Shown here: positions 365 through 32,700 of the stretch, piece by piece
Layout of the letters: each line of letters starts with the position of its first letter
Position numbering within the stretch: position 1 is the first letter of the stretch
From: Escherichia phage T7
Length of the DNA: 39,096 nt
Sequence record: AY264777.1
Reading direction: 5' to 3' (one strand)
The notes under the pieces: model-generated
Database searches by the model: none
What the model saw: only the letters and a program-made list of their open reading frames with translations
What the model was told of the DNA's origin: nothing
Program-made: the position numbers and the translations under genes

Positions 365-387
365 TAATACAACTCACTATAAGGAGA
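365..387 (+). promoter_or_regulatory. T7 RNAP promoter phiOL
   Basis: taatacaactcactataaggaga, 21/23 match to the T7 consensus. Confidence 0.8.
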
Positions 388-2329: not shown

Positions 2330-4981
2330 ATGAACACGATTAACATCGCTAAGAACGACTTCTCTGACATCGAACTGGCTGCTATCCCGTTCAACACTCT
2401 GGCTGACCATTACGGTGAGCGTTTAGCTCGCGAACAGTTGGCTCTTGAGCATGAGTCTTACGAGATGGGTGAAGCACGCTTTCGCAAGATGTTTGAGCGT
2501 CAACTTAAAGCTGGTGAGGTTGCGGATAACGCTGCCGCCAAGCCTCTCATCACTACCCTACTCCCTAAGATGATTGCACGCATCAACGACTGGTTTGAGG
2601 AAGTGAAAGCTAAGCGCGGCAAGCGCCCGACAGCTTTCCAGTTCCTGCAAGAAATCAAGCCGGAAGCCGTAGCGTACATCACCATTAAGACCACTCTGGC
2701 TTGCCTAACCAGTGCTGACAATACAACCGTTCAGGCTGCAGCAAGCGCAATCGGTCGGGCCATTGAGGACGAGGCTCGTTTCGGTCGTATCCGTGACCTT
2801 GAAGCTAAGCACTTCAAGAAAAACGTTGAGGAACAACTCAACAAGCGCGTAGGGCACGTCTACAAGAAAGCATTTATGCAAGTTGTCGAGGCTGACATGC
2901 TCTCTAAGGGTCTACTCGGTGGCGAGGCGTGGTCTTCGTGGCATAAGGAAGACTCTATTCATGTAGGAGTACGCTGCATCGAGATGCTCATTGAGTCAAC
3001 CGGAATGGTTAGCTTACATCGCCAAAATGCTGGCGTAGTAGGTCAAGACTCTGAGACTATCGAACTCGCACCTGAATACGCTGAGGCTATCGCAACCCGT
3101 GCAGGTGCGCTGGCTGGCATCTCTCCGATGTTCCAACCTTGCGTAGTTCTTCCTAAGCCGTGGACTGGCATTACTGGTGGTGGCTATTGGGCTAACGGTC
3201 GTCGTCCTCTGGCGCTGGTGCGTACTCACAGTAAGAAAGCACTGATGCGCTACGAAGACGTTTACATGCCTGAGGTGTACAAAGCGATTAACATTGCGCA
3301 AAACACCGCATGGAAAATCAACAAGAAAGTCCTAGCGGTCGCCAACGTAATCACCAAGTGGAAGCATTGTCCGGTCGAGAACATCCCTGCGATTGAGCGT
3401 GAAGAACTCCCGATGAAACCGGAAAACATCGACATGAATCCTGAGGCTCTCATCGCGTGGAAACGTGCTGCCGCTGCTGTGTACCGCAAGGACAAGGCTC
3501 GCAAGTCTCGCCGTATCAGCCTTGAGTTCATGCTTGAGCAAGCCAATAAGTTTGCTAATCATAAGGCCATTTGGTTCCCTTACAACATGGACTGGCGCGG
3601 TCGTGTTTACGCTGTGTCAATGTTCAACCCGCAAGGTAACGATATGACCAAAGGACTGCTTACGCTGGCAAAAGGTAAACCAATCGGTAAGGAAGGTTAC
3701 TACTGGCTGAAAATCCACGGTGCAAACTGTGCGGGTGTCGATAAGGTTCCGTTCCCTGAGCGCATCAAGTTCATTGAGGAAAACCACGAGAACATCATAG
3801 CTTGCGCTAAGTCTCCACTGGAGAACACTTGGTGGGCTGAGCAAGATTCTCCGTTCTGCTTCCTTGCGTTCTGCTTTGAGTACGCTGGGGTACAGCACCA
3901 CGGCCTGAGCTATAACTGCTCCCTTCCGCTGGCGTTTGACGGGTCTTGCTCTGGCATCCAGCACTCCTCCGCGATGCTCCGAGATGAGGTAGGTGGTCGC
4001 GCGGTTAACTTGCTTCCTAGTGAAACCGTTCACGACATCTACGGGATTGTTGCTAAGAAAGTCAACGAGATTCTACAAGCAGATGCAATCAATGGGACCG
4101 ATAACGAAGTAGTTACCGTGACCGATGAGAACACTGGTGAAATCTCTGAGAAAGTCAAGCTGGGCACTAAGGCACTGGCTGGTCAATGGCTGGCTTACAG
4201 TGTTACTCGCAGTGTGACTAAGCGTTCAGTCATGACGCTGGCTTACGGGTCCAAAGAGTTCGGCTTCCGTCAACAAGTGCTGGAAGATACCATTCAGCCA
4301 GCTATTGATTCCGGCAAGGGTCTGATGTTCACTCAGCCGAATCAGGCTGCTGGATACATGGCTAAGCTGATTTGGGAATCTGTGAGCGTGACGGTGGTAG
4401 CTGCGGTTGAAGCAATGAACTGGCTTAAGTCTGCTGCTAAGCTGCTGGCTGCTGAGGTCAAAGATAAGAAGACTGGAGAGATTCTTCGCAAGCGTTGCGC
4501 TGTGCATTGGGTAACTCCTGATGGTTTTCCTGTGTGGCAGGAATACAAGAAGCCTATTCAGACGCGCTTGAACCTGATGTTCCTCGGTCAGTTCCGCTTA
4601 CAGCCTACCATTAACACCAACAAAGATAGCGAGATTGATGCACACAAACAGGAGTCTGGTATCGCTCCTAACTTTGTACACAGCCAAGACGGTAGCCATC
4701 TTCGTAAGACTGTAGTGTGGGCACACGAGAAGTACGGAATCGAATCTTTTGCACTGATTCACGACTCCTTCGGTACCATTCCGGCTGACGCTGCGAACTT
4801 GTTCAAAGCAGTGCGCGAAACTATGGTTGACACATATGAGTCTTGTGATGTACTGGCTGATTTCTACGACCAGTTCGCTGACCAGTTGCACGAGTCTCAA
4901 TTGGACAAAATGCCAGCACTTCCGGCTAAAGGTAACTTGAACCTCCGTGACATCTTAGAGTCGGACTTCGCGTTCGCGTAA
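2330..4981 (+). CDS. 1: Gene 1, T7 RNA polymerase (883 aa)
   Basis: ORF 2330..4981; full-length single-subunit RNAP; specificity-loop region as recalled for wild type. Confidence 0.98.
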   Translation: MNTINIAKNDFSDIELAAIPFNTLADHYGERLAREQLALEHESYEMGEARFRKMFERQLKAGEVADNAAAKPLITTLLPKMIARINDWFEEVKAKRGKRPTAFQFLQEIKPEAVAYITIKTTLACLTSADNTTVQAAASAIGRAIEDEARFGRIRDLEAKHFKKNVEEQLNKRVGHVYKKAFMQVVEADMLSKGLLGGEAWSSWHKEDSIHVGVRCIEMLIESTGMVSLHRQNAGVVGQDSETIELAPEYAEAIATRAGALAGISPMFQPCVVLPKPWTGITGGGYWANGRRPLALVRTHSKKALMRYEDVYMPEVYKAINIAQNTAWKINKKVLAVANVITKWKHCPVENIPAIEREELPMKPENIDMNPEALIAWKRAAAAVYRKDKARKSRRISLEFMLEQANKFANHKAIWFPYNMDWRGRVYAVSMFNPQGNDMTKGLLTLAKGKPIGKEGYYWLKIHGANCAGVDKVPFPERIKFIEENHENIIACAKSPLENTWWAEQDSPFCFLAFCFEYAGVQHHGLSYNCSLPLAFDGSCSGIQHSSAMLRDEVGGRAVNLLPSETVHDIYGIVAKKVNEILQADAINGTDNEVVTVTDENTGEISEKVKLGTKALAGQWLAYSVTRSVTKRSVMTLAYGSKEFGFRQQVLEDTIQPAIDSGKGLMFTQPNQAAGYMAKLIWESVSVTVVAAVEAMNWLKSAAKLLAAEVKDKKTGEILRKRCAVHWVTPDGFPVWQEYKKPIQTRLNLMFLGQFRLQPTINTNKDSEIDAHKQESGIAPNFVHSQDGSHLRKTVVWAHEKYGIESFALIHDSFGTIPADAANLFKAVRETMVDTYESCDVLADFYDQFADQLHESQLDKMPALPAKGNLNLRDILESDFAFA

Positions 4982-7915: not shown

Positions 7916-8248
<333 letters not shown>

Positions 8249-8251
<3 letters not shown>

Positions 8252-8271
8252 TACGACTCACTATTAGAGAA
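8249..8271 (+). promoter_or_regulatory. T7 promoter phi2.5 (A-initiating class II promoter)
   Basis: taatacgactcactattagagaa. Confidence 0.8.
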
Positions 8272-8316
8272 GACTCCCTCTGAGAAACCAAACGAAACCT
8301 AAAGGAGATTAACATT

Positions 8317-9015
8317 ATGGCTAAGAAGATTTTCACCTCTGCGCTGGGTACCGCTGAACCTTACGCTTACATCGCCAAGCCGGACTACGGCAACGAAGAG
8401 CGTGGCTTTGGGAACCCTCGTGGTGTCTATAAAGTTGACCTGACTATTCCCAACAAAGACCCGCGCTGCCAGCGTATGGTCGATGAAATCGTGAAGTGTC
8501 ACGAAGAGGCTTATGCTGCTGCCGTTGAGGAATACGAAGCTAATCCACCTGCTGTAGCTCGTGGTAAGAAACCGCTGAAACCGTATGAGGGTGACATGCC
8601 GTTCTTCGATAACGGTGACGGTACGACTACCTTTAAGTTCAAATGCTACGCGTCTTTCCAAGACAAAAAAACCAAAGAGACCAAGCACATCAATCTGGTT
8701 GTGGTTGACTCAAAAGGTAAGAAGATGAAAGACGTTCCGATTATCGGTGGTGGCTCTAAGCTGAAAGTTAAATATTCTCTGATTCCATACAAGTGGAACA
8801 CTGCTGTAGGTGCGAGCGTTAAGCTGCAACTGGAATCCGTGATGCTGGTCGAACTGGCTACCTTTGGTGGCGGTGAAGACGATTGGGCTGACGAAGTTGA
8901 AGAGAACGGCTATGTTGCCTCTGGTTCTGCCAAAGCGAGCAAACCACGCGACGAAGAAAGCTGGGACGAAGACGACGAAGAGTCCGAGGAAGCAGACGAA
9001 AACGGAGACTTCTAA
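8317..9015 (+). CDS. 2.5: Gene 2.5, single-stranded DNA-binding protein (232 aa)
   Basis: ORF 8317..9015; acidic C-terminal tail ...DEESEEADENGDF. Confidence 0.95.
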   Translation: MAKKIFTSALGTAEPYAYIAKPDYGNEERGFGNPRGVYKVDLTIPNKDPRCQRMVDEIVKCHEEAYAAAVEEYEANPPAVARGKKPLKPYEGDMPFFDNGDGTTTFKFKCYASFQDKKTKETKHINLVVVDSKGKKMKDVPIIGGGSKLKVKYSLIPYKWNTAVGASVKLQLESVMLVELATFGGGEDDWADEVEENGYVASGSAKASKPRDEESWDEDDEESEEADENGDF

Positions 9016-9435
9016 GTGGAACTGCGGGAGAAAATCCTTGAGCGAATCAAGGTGACTTCCTCTGGGTGTTGGGAGTGGCAGGGCGCTACGAACAATAAAG
9101 GGTACGGGCAGGTGTGGTGCAGCAATACCGGAAAGGTTGTCTACTGTCATCGCGTAATGTCTAATGCTCCGAAAGATTCTACCGTCCTGCACTCCTGTGA
9201 TAATCCATTATGTTGTAACCCTGAACACTTATCCATAGGAACTCCAAAAGAGAACTCCACTGACATGGTAAATAAGGGTCGCTCACACAAGGGGTATAAA
9301 CTTTCAGACGAAGACGTAATGACAATCATGGAGTTCAGCGAGTCCAATGTATCCTTAGCTCGCACCTATGATGTCTCCCAACAGACTATTTGTGATATAC
9401 GCAAAGGGAGGCGACATGGCAGGTTACAGCGCTAA
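9016..9435 (+). CDS. 2.8: Gene 2.8, HNH-like protein (139 aa), apparent GTG start
   Basis: ORF 9016..9435; Cys/His-rich N-terminal half. Confidence 0.75.
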   Translation: MELREKILERIKVTSSGCWEWQGATNNKGYGQVWCSNTGKVVYCHRVMSNAPKDSTVLHSCDNPLCCNPEHLSIGTPKENSTDMVNKGRSHKGYKLSDEDVMTIMEFSESNVSLARTYDVSQQTICDIRKGRRHGRLQR

Positions 9436-9865
9436 AGGAATCCGAAAAGTTGGAGCGTTTCGCTCTGGCCTAGAGGACAAGGTTTCAAAGCAGTTGGAAT
9501 CAAAAGGTATTAAATTCGAGTATGAAGAGTGGAAAGTGCCTTATGTAATTCCGGCGAGCAATCACACTTACACTCCAGACTTCTTACTCCCAAACGGTAT
9601 ATTCGTTGAGACAAAGGGTCTGTGGGAAAGCGATGATAGAAAGAAGCACTTATTAATTAGGAAGCAGCACCCCGAGCTAGACATCCGTATTGTCTTCTCA
9701 AGCTCACGTACTAAGTTATACAAAGGTTCTCCAACGTCTTATGGAGAGTTCTGCGAAAAGCATGGTATTAAGTTCGCTGATAAACTGATACCTGCTGAGT
9801 GGATAAAGGAACCCAAGAAGGAGGTCCCCTTTGATAGATTAAAAAGGAAAGGAGGAAAGAAATAA
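9416..9865 (+). CDS. 3: Gene 3, endonuclease I, Holliday-junction resolvase (149 aa)
   Basis: Internal ATG 9416 of ORF 9368..9865; MAGYSAKGIRKVGAFRSGLEDKVSKQLE... Confidence 0.9.
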   Translation: MAGYSAKGIRKVGAFRSGLEDKVSKQLESKGIKFEYEEWKVPYVIPASNHTYTPDFLLPNGIFVETKGLWESDDRKKHLLIRKQHPELDIRIVFSSSRTKLYKGSPTSYGEFCEKHGIKFADKLIPAEWIKEPKKEVPFDRLKRKGGKK

Positions 9866-10320
9866 TGGCTCGTGTACAGTTTAAACAACGTGAATTTACT
9901 GATGCAATCTTTGTTCACTGCTCGGCTACCAAGCCAAGTCAGAATGTTGGTGTCCGTGAGATTCGCCAGTGGCACAAAGAGCAGGGTTGGCTCGATGTGG
10001 GATACCACTTTATCATCAAGCGAGACGGTACTGTGGAGGCAGGACGAGATGAGATGGCTGTAGGCTCTCACGCTAAGGGTTACAACCACAACTCTATCGG
10101 CGTCTGCCTTGTTGGTGGTATCGACGATAAAGGTAAGTTCGACGCTAACTTTACGCCAGCCCAAATGCAATCCCTTCGCTCACTGCTTGTCACACTGCTG
10201 GCTAAGTACGAAAGCGCTGTGCTTCGCGCCCATCATGAGGTGGCGCCGAAGGCTTGCCCTTCGTTCGACCTTAAGCGTTGGTGGGAGAAGAACGAACTGG
10301 TCACTTCTGACCGTGGATAA
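9865..10320 (+). CDS. 3.5: Gene 3.5, lysozyme (N-acetylmuramoyl-L-alanine amidase, RNAP inhibitor) (151 aa)
   Basis: ORF 9865..10320; MARVQFKQREFTDAIFVHCSATK... Confidence 0.95.
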   Translation: MARVQFKQREFTDAIFVHCSATKPSQNVGVREIRQWHKEQGWLDVGYHFIIKRDGTVEAGRDEMAVGSHAKGYNHNSIGVCLVGGIDDKGKFDANFTPAQMQSLRSLLVTLLAKYESAVLRAHHEVAPKACPSFDLKRWWEKNELVTSDRG

Positions 10321-10321
10321 T

Positions 10322-10344
10322 TAATTGAACTCACTAAAAGGAAA
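10322..10344 (+). promoter_or_regulatory. T7 promoter phi3.8 (variant initially transcribed sequence)
   Basis: taattgaactcactaaaaggaaa. Confidence 0.75.
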
Positions 10345-13511: not shown

Positions 13512-15626
13512 ATGATCGTTTCTGACATCGAAGCTAACGCCCTCTTAGAGAGCGTCACTAAGTTCCACTGCGGGGTTATCTACGACTACTCCACCGCTGA
13601 GTACGTAAGCTACCGTCCGAGTGACTTTGGTGCGTATCTGGATGCGCTGGAAGCCGAGGTTGCACGAGGCGGTCTTATTGTGTTCCACAACGGTCACAAG
13701 TATGACGTTCCTGCATTGATCAAACTGGCAAAGTTGCAATTGAACCGAGAGTTCCACCTTCCTCGTGAGAACTGTATTGACACCCTTGTGTTGTCACGTT
13801 TGATTCATTCCAACCTCAAGAACATCGATATGGGTCTTCTGCGTTCCGGCAAGTTGCCCGGAAAACGCTTTGGGTCTCACGCTTTGGAGGCGTGGGGTTA
13901 TCGCTTAGGCGAGATGAAGGGTGAATACAAAGACGACTTTAAGCGTATGCTTGAAGAGCAGGGTGAAGAATACGTTGACGGAATGGAGTGGTGGAACTTC
14001 AACGAAGAGATGATGGACTATAACGTTCAGGACGTTGTGGTAACTAAAGCTCTCCTTGAGAAGCTACTCTCTGACAAACATTATTTCCCTCCTGAGATTG
14101 ACTTTACGGACGTAGGATACACTACGTTCTGGTCAGAATCCCTTGAGGCCGTTGACATTGAACATCGTGCTGCATGGCTGCTCGCTAAACAAGAGCGCAA
14201 CGGGTTCCCGTTTGACACAAAAGCAATCGAAGAGTTGTACGTAGAGTTAGCTTCTCGCCGCTCTGAATTGCTCCGTAAATTGACCGAAACGTTCGGCTCG
14301 TGGTATCAGCCTAAAGGTGGCACTGAGATGTTCTGCCATCCGCGAACAGGTAAGCCACTACCTAAATACCCTCGCATTAAGACACCTAAAGTTGGTGGTA
14401 TCTTTAAGAAGCCTAAGAACAAGGCACAGCGAGAAGGCCGTGAGCCTTGCGAACTTGATACCCGCGAGTACGTTGCTGGTGCTCCTTACACCCCAGTTGA
14501 ACATGTTGTGTTTAACCCTTCGTCTCGTGACCACATTCAGAAGAAACTCCAAGAGACTGGGTGGATCCCGACCAAGTACACCGATAAGGGTGCTCCTGTG
14601 GTGGACGATGAGGTACTCGAAGGAGTACGTGTAGATGACCCTGAGAAGCAAGCCGCTATCGACCTCATTAAAGAGTACTTGATGATTCAGAAGCGAATCG
14701 GACAGTCTGCTGAGGGAGACAAAGCATGGCTTCGTTATGTTGCTGAGGATGGTAAGATTCATGGTTCTGTTAACCCTAATGGAGCAGTTACGGGTCGTGC
14801 GACCCATGCGTTCCCAAACCTTGCGCAAATTCCGGGTGTACGTTCTCCTTATGGAGAGCAGTGTCGTGCTGCTTTTGGCGCTGAGCACCATTTGGATGGG
14901 ATAACTGGTAAGCCTTGGGTTCAGGCTGGCATCGACGCATCCGGTCTTGAGCTACGCTGCTTGGCTCACTTCATGGCTCGCTTTGATAACGGCGAGTACG
15001 CTCACGAGATTCTTAACGGCGACATCCACACTAAGAACCAGATAGCTGCTGAACTACCTACCCGAGATAACGCTAAGACGTTCATCTATGGGTTTCTCTA
15101 TGGTGCTGGTGATGAGAAGATTGGACAGATTGTTGGTGCTGGTAAAGAGCGCGGTAAGGAACTCAAGAAGAAATTCCTTGAGAACACCCCCGCGATTGCA
15201 GCACTCCGCGAGTCTATCCAACAGACACTTGTCGAGTCCTCTCAATGGGTAGCTGGTGAGCAACAAGTCAAGTGGAAACGCCGCTGGATTAAAGGTCTGG
15301 ATGGTCGTAAGGTACACGTTCGTAGTCCTCACGCTGCCTTGAATACCCTACTGCAATCTGCTGGTGCTCTCATCTGCAAACTGTGGATTATCAAGACCGA
15401 AGAGATGCTCGTAGAGAAAGGCTTGAAGCATGGCTGGGATGGGGACTTTGCGTACATGGCATGGGTACATGATGAAATCCAAGTAGGCTGCCGTACCGAA
15501 GAGATTGCTCAGGTAGTCATTGAGATCGCACAAGAAGCGATGCGCTGGGTTGGAGACCACTGGAACTTCCGGTGTCTTCTGGATACCGAAGGTAAGATGG
15601 GTCCTAATTGGGCGATTTGTCACTGA
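13512..15626 (+). CDS. 5: Gene 5, DNA polymerase (704 aa)
   Basis: ORF 13512..15626; family A polymerase with N-terminal 3'-5' exonuclease ([13 protein letters not shown]). Confidence 0.97.
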
Positions 15627-22045: not shown

Positions 22046-22068
22046 TAATACGATTCATTATAGGGAGA
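22046..22068 (+). promoter_or_regulatory. T7 class III promoter phi10 (two substitutions, -9 and -5)
   Basis: taatacgattcattatagggaga followed by the gene 10 leader ccacaacggtttccctctagaaataattttgtttaactttaagaaggagatatacat. Confidence 0.9.
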
Positions 22069-29753: not shown

Positions 29754-32700
29754 ATGGATAAGTACGATAAGAACGTACCAAGTGATTATGATGGTCTGTT
29801 CCAAAAGGCTGCTGATGCCAACGGGGTCTCTTATGACCTTTTACGTAAAATCGCTTGGATAGAATCACGATTTGTGCATACAGCAAAATCTAAGACTGGA
29901 CCATTAGGCATGATGCAATTTACCAAGGCAACCGCTAAGGCCCTCGGTCTGCGAATTACCGATGGTCCAGACGACGACCGACTGAACCCTGAGTTAGCTA
30001 TTAATGCTGCCGCTAAGCAACTTGCAGGTCTGGTAGGGAAGTTTGATGGCGATGAACTCAAAGCTGCCCTTGCGTACAACCAAGGCGAGGGACGCTTGGG
30101 TAATTCACAACTTGAGGCGTACTCTAAGGGAGACTTCGCATCAATCTCTGAGGAGGGACGTAACTACATGCGTAACCTTCTGGATGTTGCTAAGTCACCT
30201 ATGGCTGGACAGTTGGAAACTTTTGGTGGCATAACCCCAAAGGGTAAAGGCATTCCGGCTGAGGTAGGATTGGCTGGAATTGGTCACAAGCAGAAAGTAA
30301 CACAGGAACTTCCTGAGTCCACAAGTTTTGACGTTAAGAGTATCGAACAGGAGGCTACGGCGAAACCATTCGCCAAGGACTTTTGGGAGACCCACGGAGA
30401 AACACTTGACGAGTACAACAGTCGTTCAACCTTCTTCGGATTCAAAAATGTTGCCGAAGCTGAATTCTCCAACTCAGTCGCTGGGATGGCTTTCCGTGCT
30501 GGTCGTCTCGATAATGGTTTTGATGTGTTTAAAGACACCATTACGCCGACTCGCTGGAACTCTCACATCTGGACTCCAGAGGAGTTAGAGAAGATTCGAA
30601 CAGAGGTTAAGAACCCTGCGTACATCAACGTTGTAATTGGTGGTTCCCCTGAGAACCTCGATGATCTCATTAAATTGGCTAACGAGAACTTTGAGAATGA
30701 CTCCCGCGCTGCCGAGGCTGGCCTAGGTGCCAAACTGAGTGCTGGTATTATTGGTGCTGGTGTGGACCCGCTTAGCTATGTTCCTATGGTCGGTGTCACT
30801 GGTAAGGGCTTTAAGTTAATCAATAAGGCTCTTGTAGTTGGTGCCGAAAGTGCTGCTCTGAACGTTGCATCCGAAGGTCTCCGTACTTCCGTAGCTGGTG
30901 GTGACGCAGACTATGCGGGTGCTGCCTTAGGTGGCTTTGTGTTTGGCGCAGGCATGTCTGCAATCAGTGACGCTGTAGCTGCTGGACTGAAACGCAGTAA
31001 ACCAGAAGCTGAGTTCGACAATGAGTTCATCGGTCCTATGATGCGATTGGAAGCCCGTGAGACAGCACGAAACGCCAACTCTGCGGACCTCTCTCGGATG
31101 AACACTGAGAACATGAAGTTTGAAGGTGAACATAATGGTGTCCCTTATGAGGACTTACCAACAGAGAGAGGTGCCGTGGTGTTACATGATGGCTCCGTTC
31201 TAAGTGCAAGCAACCCAATCAACCCTAAGACTCTAAAAGAGTTCTCCGAGGTTGACCCTGAGAAGGCTGCACGAGGAATCAAACTGGCTGGGTTCACCGA
31301 GATTGGCTTGAAGACCTTGGGGTCTGACGATGCTGACATTCGTAGAATGGCTATCGACCTCGTTCGTTCTCCTACTGGTATGCAGTCTGGTGCCTCAGGT
31401 AAGTTCGGTGCAACAGCTTCTGACATCCATGAGAGACTTCATGGTACTGACCAGCATACTTATAATGACTTGTACAAAGCAATGTCTGACGCTATGAAAG
31501 ACCCTGAGTTCTCTACTGGCGGCGCTAAGATGTCCCGTGAAGAAACTCGATACACTATCTACCGTAGAGCGGCACTAGCTATTGAGCGTCCAGAACTACA
31601 GAAGGCACTCACTCCGTCTGAGAGAATCGTTATGGACATCATTAAGCGTCACTTTGACACCAAGCGTGAACTTATGGAAAACCCAGCAATATTCGGTAAT
31701 ACAAAGGCTGTGAGTATCTTCCCTGAGAGTCGCCACAAAGGTACTTACGTTCCTCACGTATATGACCGTCATGCCAAGGCGCTGATGATTCAACGCTACG
31801 GTGCCGAAGGTTTGCAGGAAGGGATTGCCCGCTCATGGATGAACAGCTACGTCTCCAGACCTGAGGTCAAAGCCAGAGTCGATGAGATGCTTAAGGAATT
31901 ACACGGGGTGAAGGAAGTAACACCAGAGATGGTAGAGAAGTACGCTATGGATAAGGCTTATGGTATCTCCCACTCAGACCAGTTCACCAACAGTTCCATA
32001 ATAGAAGAGAACATTGAGGGCTTAGTAGGTATCGAGAATAACTCATTCCTTGAGGCACGTAACTTGTTTGATTCGGACCTATCCATCACTATGTCAGACG
32101 GACAGCAATTCTCAGTGAATGATCTAAGGGACTTCGATATGTTCCGCATCATGCCAGCGTATGACCGTCGTGTCAATGGTGACATCGCCATCATGGGGTC
32201 TACTGGTAAAACCACTAAGGAACTTAAGGATGAGATTTTGGCTCTCAAAGCGAAAGTTGCGGGAAACGGTAAGAAGACTGGCGAGGTACATGCTTTAATG
32301 GATACCGTTAAGATTCTTACTGGTCGTGCTAGACGCAATCAGGACACTGTGTGGGAAACCTCACTGCGTGCCATCAATGACCTAGGGTTCTTCGCTAAGA
32401 ACGCCTACATGGGTGCTCAGAACATTACGGAGATTGCTGGGATGATTGTCACTGGTAACGTTCGTGCTCTAGGGCATGGTATCCCAATTCTGCGTGATAC
32501 ACTCTACAAGTCTAAACCAGTTTCAGCTAAGGAACTCAAGGAACTCCATGCGTCTCTGTTCGGGAAGGAGGTGGACCAGTTGATTCGGCCTAAACGTGCT
32601 GACATTGTGCAGCGCCTAAGGGAAGCAACTGATACCGGACCTGCCGTGGCGAACATCGTAGGGATCTTGAAGTATTCAACACAGGAACTGGCTGCTCGCT

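Follow-up and report, generated by a model that had tools for sequence, protein, structure and literature searches.

A G-to-A substitution at +3 of the phi2.5 promoter in a heavily mutated laboratory line of bacteriophage T7

The window, meaning the whole stretch of DNA analysed here, comprises 39,096 nucleotides of an Escherichia phage T7 record (AY264777.1) read on one strand from 5' to 3'. It contains the promoter phi2.5 in the interval from the stop codon of gene 2 to the start codon of gene 2.5, a position orthologous to that in the reference V01146 by alignment. The TAA stop of gene 2 (8249-8251) supplies the first three bases of the promoter. Window 8249-8273 reads TAATACGACTCACTATTAGAGAAGA, a sequence with a single occurrence in the window and none expected in shuffles, and ten further T7-type promoters are present, identifying the DNA as a T7 genome. 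The aligned transcription start is the A at window 8266, corresponding to V01146 9107. Positions -17 to -2 are those of the 23-bp T7 promoter consensus (-17 to +6), the T at -1 and the A at +1 are those of wild-type phi2.5, and the sequence is wild type throughout -17 to +2 and from +4 onward. At +3, a whole-genome MAFFT alignment places the A at window 8268 opposite G at V01146 9109 and at AY264774 9110. An earlier sequence-only reading had given the wild-type promoter as CACTATT followed by AGGGAA and had reported AGAGAA in the window; both statements hold against the reference alignment, and the references do not carry AGAGAA. The promoter phiOL (window 365-387, start 382) also has A at +1 according to the V01146 annotation (TATA before the start, AGGAGA from it), so that, by annotation alone, phi2.5 is not the sole A-start T7 promoter.

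Table 1. Features of the phi2.5 region, and promoter changes elsewhere in the window, in window coordinates.
Feature	Position	Strand	Basis or remark
T7 RNA polymerase promoter phi2.5, class II, -17 to +6	8249..8271	+	alignment to V01146 'T7 promoter phi2.5' at 9107
G>A at phi2.5 +3; wild-type context AGGGA, 5' neighbour G; intergenic	8268	+	alignment
First 14 nt of phi2.5 transcript	8266..8279	+	wild type AGGGAAGACUCCCU, with a 5'-terminal hairpin predicted at -5.6 kcal/mol
Gene 2, inhibitor of host RNA polymerase	8057..8251	+	annotation/alignment
Gene 2.5, single-stranded DNA-binding protein; first gene to follow phi2.5	8317..9015	+	annotation/alignment
phi3.8, G>A at +1 (10339) and +5 (10343)	10339..10343	+	alignment
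phi9, G>A at +2	21025	+	alignment
phi10 core, C>T at -9 (22054) and -5 (22058)	22054..22058	+	alignment

The window was aligned with V01146 (the Dunn and Studier reference, promoter-annotated), AY264774 (T7+), AY264778 (P82), AY264775 (K) and AY264776 (K115). Relative to AY264774, it carries 306 substitutions, is 23 bp short at the left end and has lost 819 bp within gene 0.7. With the Bull-laboratory T7+ it shares the marker of that strain, a 1-bp insertion after V01146 1895-1896. A megablast search with the 801 bases around 8268 matched 286 phage records, with AY264778 ('Enterobacteria phage T7 isolate P82') as the sole 100% match and wild-type T7 records at 99.0%. The A at phi2.5 +3 is found in the window and in P82, with G in V01146, AY264774, K and K115, and the allele is already public in the AY264778 record. 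P82 differs from the window by 26 substitutions; every promoter change of the window, including the phi2.5 +3 A, is also present in P82, and so is the 819-bp gene 0.7 deletion. From the window to P82, 4 sites truly reverted, some 20 further changes were gained, and one deletion of 12 bp and two of 1 bp occurred; the pattern of reversions and new changes makes the window look like the P82 parent, and it is most likely the 'P' isolate of the GenBank series AY264774-AY264778, judging from the neighbouring records. The T7+ of Bull et al. 2003 is deposited as AY264774 (PMC2680503), and that study is cited elsewhere as an example of random mutations being fixed by extreme bottlenecks (PMC4811365).

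Several other features of these genomes were recorded. The 819-bp deletion, a multiple of three in length, has its junction at window 2146/2147 and lacks V01146 2169-2987, the K line deletion in the gene 0.7 region is a different one (V01146 1759-2578) and that of K115 is larger, indicating that this region was lost repeatedly. The P and K lines have 26 substituted sites in common, about 15 of them G:C>A:T, where the context model described below predicts about 8.3 (P about 0.02). Several non-transitions among the common sites (GT>TG at V01146 about 11061-2, G>T at 15094 and C>A at 30719) appear to reflect a true ancestor that differed from the T7+ record as deposited. Gene 1, encoding T7 RNA polymerase (window about 2330-4981), has nine amino-acid changes, V137A, P274L, D351N, D366N, T375I, M490I, F546S, Q568H and G624S; in P82, F546S and Q568H are reverted and D351N has become D351Y, and the K line polymerase carries V273I and P275S, adjoining P274L. 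The gene 2.5 protein has E138K, V156I and D229N, the last of these in the acidic C-terminal tail. The gene 3.5 lysozyme (window 9858-10313 approximately), which regulates RNA polymerase, has S11F, G117S and G119V, and G119V is also present in the K line.

The substitutions that separate the window from AY264774 are dominated by a single class, G:C>A:T, which accounts for 286 of the 306 (93%; 159 C>T and 127 G>A), and for 387 of 417 in the K line. When both strands are collapsed, the proportion of guanines mutated depends on the 5' neighbour, amounting in the window to 2.96% after G, 2.11% after A, 0.82% after C and 0.27% after T, and in the K line to 3.84%, 2.73%, 1.02% and 0.69%, respectively. 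The preference for a 5' purine over a 5' pyrimidine (RG versus YG) corresponds to an odds ratio (OR) of 5.0 in the window (p = 4e-31) and 4.0 in the K line (p = 5e-33). The phi2.5 +3 position is a GG site, and thus belongs to the most mutable context, with 3-4% of such sites hit. The sequence-only reading had suggested that GGG runs may be mutational hotspots, an idea that the genome-wide comparison does not bear out: in the window, G/C runs of at least three were mutated at 32/1785 sites, versus 254/17126 for shorter runs (OR 1.21, p = 0.31), and when the run effect was stratified by 5' base, the Mantel-Haenszel OR was 0.69 for the window and 0.99 for the K line. Among trinucleotides, the rate for GGG (2.6%) is not above those for GGA (3.5%) or GGT (3.1%), and the run hotspot was accordingly rejected. 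Runs of G collect hits because each G past the first has a 5' purine, and the correct rule, replacing the hotspot idea, is a guanine preceded by a purine.

The distribution of the changes between the strands was also considered. On the + strand of the whole window, C>T changes are more frequent than G>A changes (1.80% versus 1.26% per site, p = 0.003), implying more mutated guanines on the template strand, and no such asymmetry is seen in the K line. From gene 2 to gene 2.5, all 8 changes are G>A on the + strand and lie inside a run of 9. A genome-wide runs test gave no sign of same-strand clustering (z = -0.27), and a run of this length would, by rough estimate, be unremarkable for 286 events; local clustering was rejected.

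A preference for guanine with a 5' purine is classical for methylating agents of the MNNG (SN1) type, which act via O6-methylguanine and give G:C>A:T changes. Burns, Gordon and Glickman reportedly described such a preference of MNNG for 5'-purine-G in E. coli lacI in the late 1980s, and nitrosoguanidine is said to have been used by Bull et al. in 2003. The context bias, taken together with this background, would assign the agent to the MNNG type. A literature search for a description of the 5'-purine rule of MNNG in bacteria yielded one paper, which concerns a different signature, dominated by T>C, in a human cell system (PMC10114081) and is not taken as support.

The purine-G rule accounts for the hits in purine-rich start regions of the GGGAGA type. 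The further start-region changes that had been named at phi9 and phi3.8 are confirmed by alignment (Table 1), and phi17 has a change at +9. Across +1 to +6 of 17 T7 promoters there are 63 G/C sites, and start regions are hit because 60 of these are in purine-G context. Expected numbers of promoter hits were derived from context-specific rates at synonymous sites and compared by Poisson statistics. The window has 4 hits in +1 to +6 versus 2.0 expected (Poisson P = 0.15), and the K line has 3 versus 2.7, so that over the 17 promoters there is no significant enrichment in either. In the -17 to -1 core there are 2 hits versus 1.4 expected in the window and 0 versus 1.8 in the K line. The promoter changes of the K line are at phi1.1A +5, phi1.5 +1 and phi4c +5, with none at phi2.5. 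The 4 hits versus 2.0 expected fit a roughly neutral accumulation, without proving neutrality. G:C>A:T rates at purine-G sites are 3.1% for synonymous, 3.5% for intergenic and 2.0% for nonsynonymous positions, indicating that genome-wide selection was weak, as expected in a bottlenecked accumulation line. Base composition suffices to explain the hits in the start regions.

The promoter phi10 (window 22046-22068), the strongest late promoter, is changed at the two hot-context cytosines of the consensus, -9 and -5; both changes are retained in P82, and phi9, with its +2 change, lies just upstream. A functional effect is more likely for these phi10 core changes than for the phi2.5 +3 change. The window line thus tolerates several promoter lesions, two of them in the phi10 core.

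Outside the P lineage, the +3 position of phi2.5 was found to be G throughout. A 61-base query centred on 8268 matched 134 records, with AY264778 as the only full-length 100% match among the matches listed; a second record in the band of at least 99% identity is, we infer, a partial match. The 20-mer carrying the window allele, AGAGAAGA, had no exact match in IMG/VR, in which all 10 loci with the -16 to +1 core AATACGACTCACTATTA continue with AGGGA. In an alignment to which Ebrios, T3, ESh1, Bas103, 04922B and WX2 were added, the window alone lacks G at +3. The A allele is thus absent from K, K115, about 130 further phage records, of which many were evolved in the laboratory, and the 10 IMG/VR loci. 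The retention of G in all natural relatives sampled suggests that the G>A change is probably mildly harmful. The earlier suggestion of relaxed constraint applies to fixation in the laboratory line alone; in nature, every phi2.5 homologue sampled has G at +3.

The +3 base also forms part of a predicted secondary structure at the 5' end of the phi2.5 transcript. In the window allele, the central G3-C12 pair of the wild-type hairpin (Table 1) is lost, and a shifted AGAG/CUCU stem, predicted at -2.8 kcal/mol and reaching position 8281, becomes the most favourable fold. For 11 of 11 natural homologues, including T3 and Ebrios, a hairpin is predicted that starts at the 5' end or at most 2 nt from it, with predicted energies of -3.7 to -11.8 kcal/mol. 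The homologue stems differ (AGGGA/UCCCU, GGGG/CCCC, GGG/CCC and GGGAG/CUCCC), the loop lengths vary, and the z-scores against shuffles range from -0.2 to -2.5 and are mostly weak. The predictions hint at a conserved structure in the phi2.5 leader, which is to be taken as a lead and not yet as a finding. The joint occurrence of a +3 G and a 5' leader hairpin throughout the sampled natural homologues is a mildly useful by-product of the comparison.

These observations favour, with a probability of about 0.9, the reading that the window is a laboratory T7 carrying about 300 mutagen-type mutations, and that the phi2.5 +3 G>A is an ordinary one of them, fixed by chance or hitchhiking and not for its usefulness. 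The change would have arisen as a mutagen-induced G:C>A:T at a guanine that follows another guanine, the context in which the agent mutates most readily, and its fixation would have owed nothing to benefit. The binding and melting region from -17 to -1 and the A and G at +1 and +2 are untouched, so that phi2.5 should still fire. The transcript would begin with pppAGA in place of pppAGG, productive initiation would probably be slightly lowered, and the predicted stability of the leader hairpin would be halved. In vitro, phi2.5 templates have yielded RNAs with an AGA start, with a 5' heterogeneity of 7% versus 11% for AGG, the comparison of the two starts being one of 5' heterogeneity only and not of yield (PMC3683919), and for the G-start promoter, the most active of the +2/+3 variants was the one with GGG at +1 to +3 (PMC7429497). 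It is plausible that the +3 A modestly reduces productive initiation and weakens the leader hairpin. Gene 2.5 would in addition be reached by read-through from upstream class II promoters, and the window has no mutation in phiOL, phi1.1A, 1.1B, 1.3, 1.5 or 1.6. Dunn and Studier are said to have reported in 1983 that no T7 terminator lies between the class II promoters and Tphi. With such read-through, the phage as a whole should be little affected. As a counterpoint, +3 is G in every natural homologue examined; the site is constrained, and the change may cost more than is assumed here.

A different possibility is that the +3 G>A was adaptive or compensatory, retuning gene 2.5 expression or suiting the altered RNA polymerase of the line. 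This is improbable. Features that would suit an adaptive origin are the unaltered persistence of the A in the recovery line P82, in which 4 other sites reverted, the many mutations of the polymerase, three of whose sites show a further change in P82, and the +1 to +6 hits of the window line, nominally about twice the expectation; the excess of hits is not significant, and retention in P82 is the default, since about 300 of the 306 changes were kept. Furthermore, no parallel change is found in K, K115 or about 130 other T7-type records, natural relatives conserve the +3 G, and the site lies in the hottest mutational context, so that selection is not needed to explain the change. The more specific proposal of a selected +3 A, either co-adapted with the mutated polymerase or lowering gene 2.5 mRNA stability or expression via the weakened hairpin, is slightly more doubtful still; if true, it would make the initially transcribed sequences of T7 promoters evolvable tuning knobs. 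The polymerase substitution P266L reduces abortive initiation, and P274L of the window line is near the P266L region.

An origin without any link to a mutagen, as a spontaneous replication error or a pre-existing polymorphism of the stock, is very unlikely. The origin of one G>A is not assignable from sequence alone, which leaves room for such an event; set against it are the 286 G:C>A:T changes with their 5'-purine bias, which make the prior for a mutagen-induced RG>RA overwhelming, the presence of G both in AY264774, the record of the ancestor, and in the sister K line, and the absence of the A allele from IMG/VR and from other records except AY264778. A sequencing or assembly error, conceivable in Sanger-era whole-genome records of which some have N calls, has hardly any probability left, since the separately deposited descendant AY264778 also has A, within an 801-bp stretch that is 100% identical, which makes a read error peculiar to one record unlikely, and since the change fits the mutational spectrum of the line.

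On the preferred reading of an ordinary mutagen-induced change, the phi2.5 +3 substitution would itself be of little consequence, as a normal product of chemical mutagenesis, and any deviation from the reference in the window is to be read first as one of the roughly 300 induced G:C>A:T changes. Compared with known systems, the window differs from the wild-type T7 phi2.5 that is used for ATP-initiated in vitro transcription (V01146 start 9107) in having AGAGAA in place of AGGGAA. With the T7 late mRNAs, which have 5'-terminal stem-loops (e.g. in the gene 10 leader), and with the mRNA-stabilising 5' hairpins of E. coli, the phi2.5 leader has in common a predicted 5' hairpin, which the window allele would weaken. 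The spectrum of the window resembles the MNNG-type signature in being 93% G:C>A:T, in its five-fold preference for a 5' purine and in the slight excess of GG over AG; the G:C>A:T class is not unique to that type, as it predominates in T7 after mutagenesis with either nitrosoguanidine or hydroxylamine (PMC6042481). The independent lineage of K and K115 (AY264775 and AY264776) has G at phi2.5 +3, and shows a mutational spectrum and context bias like those of the window.
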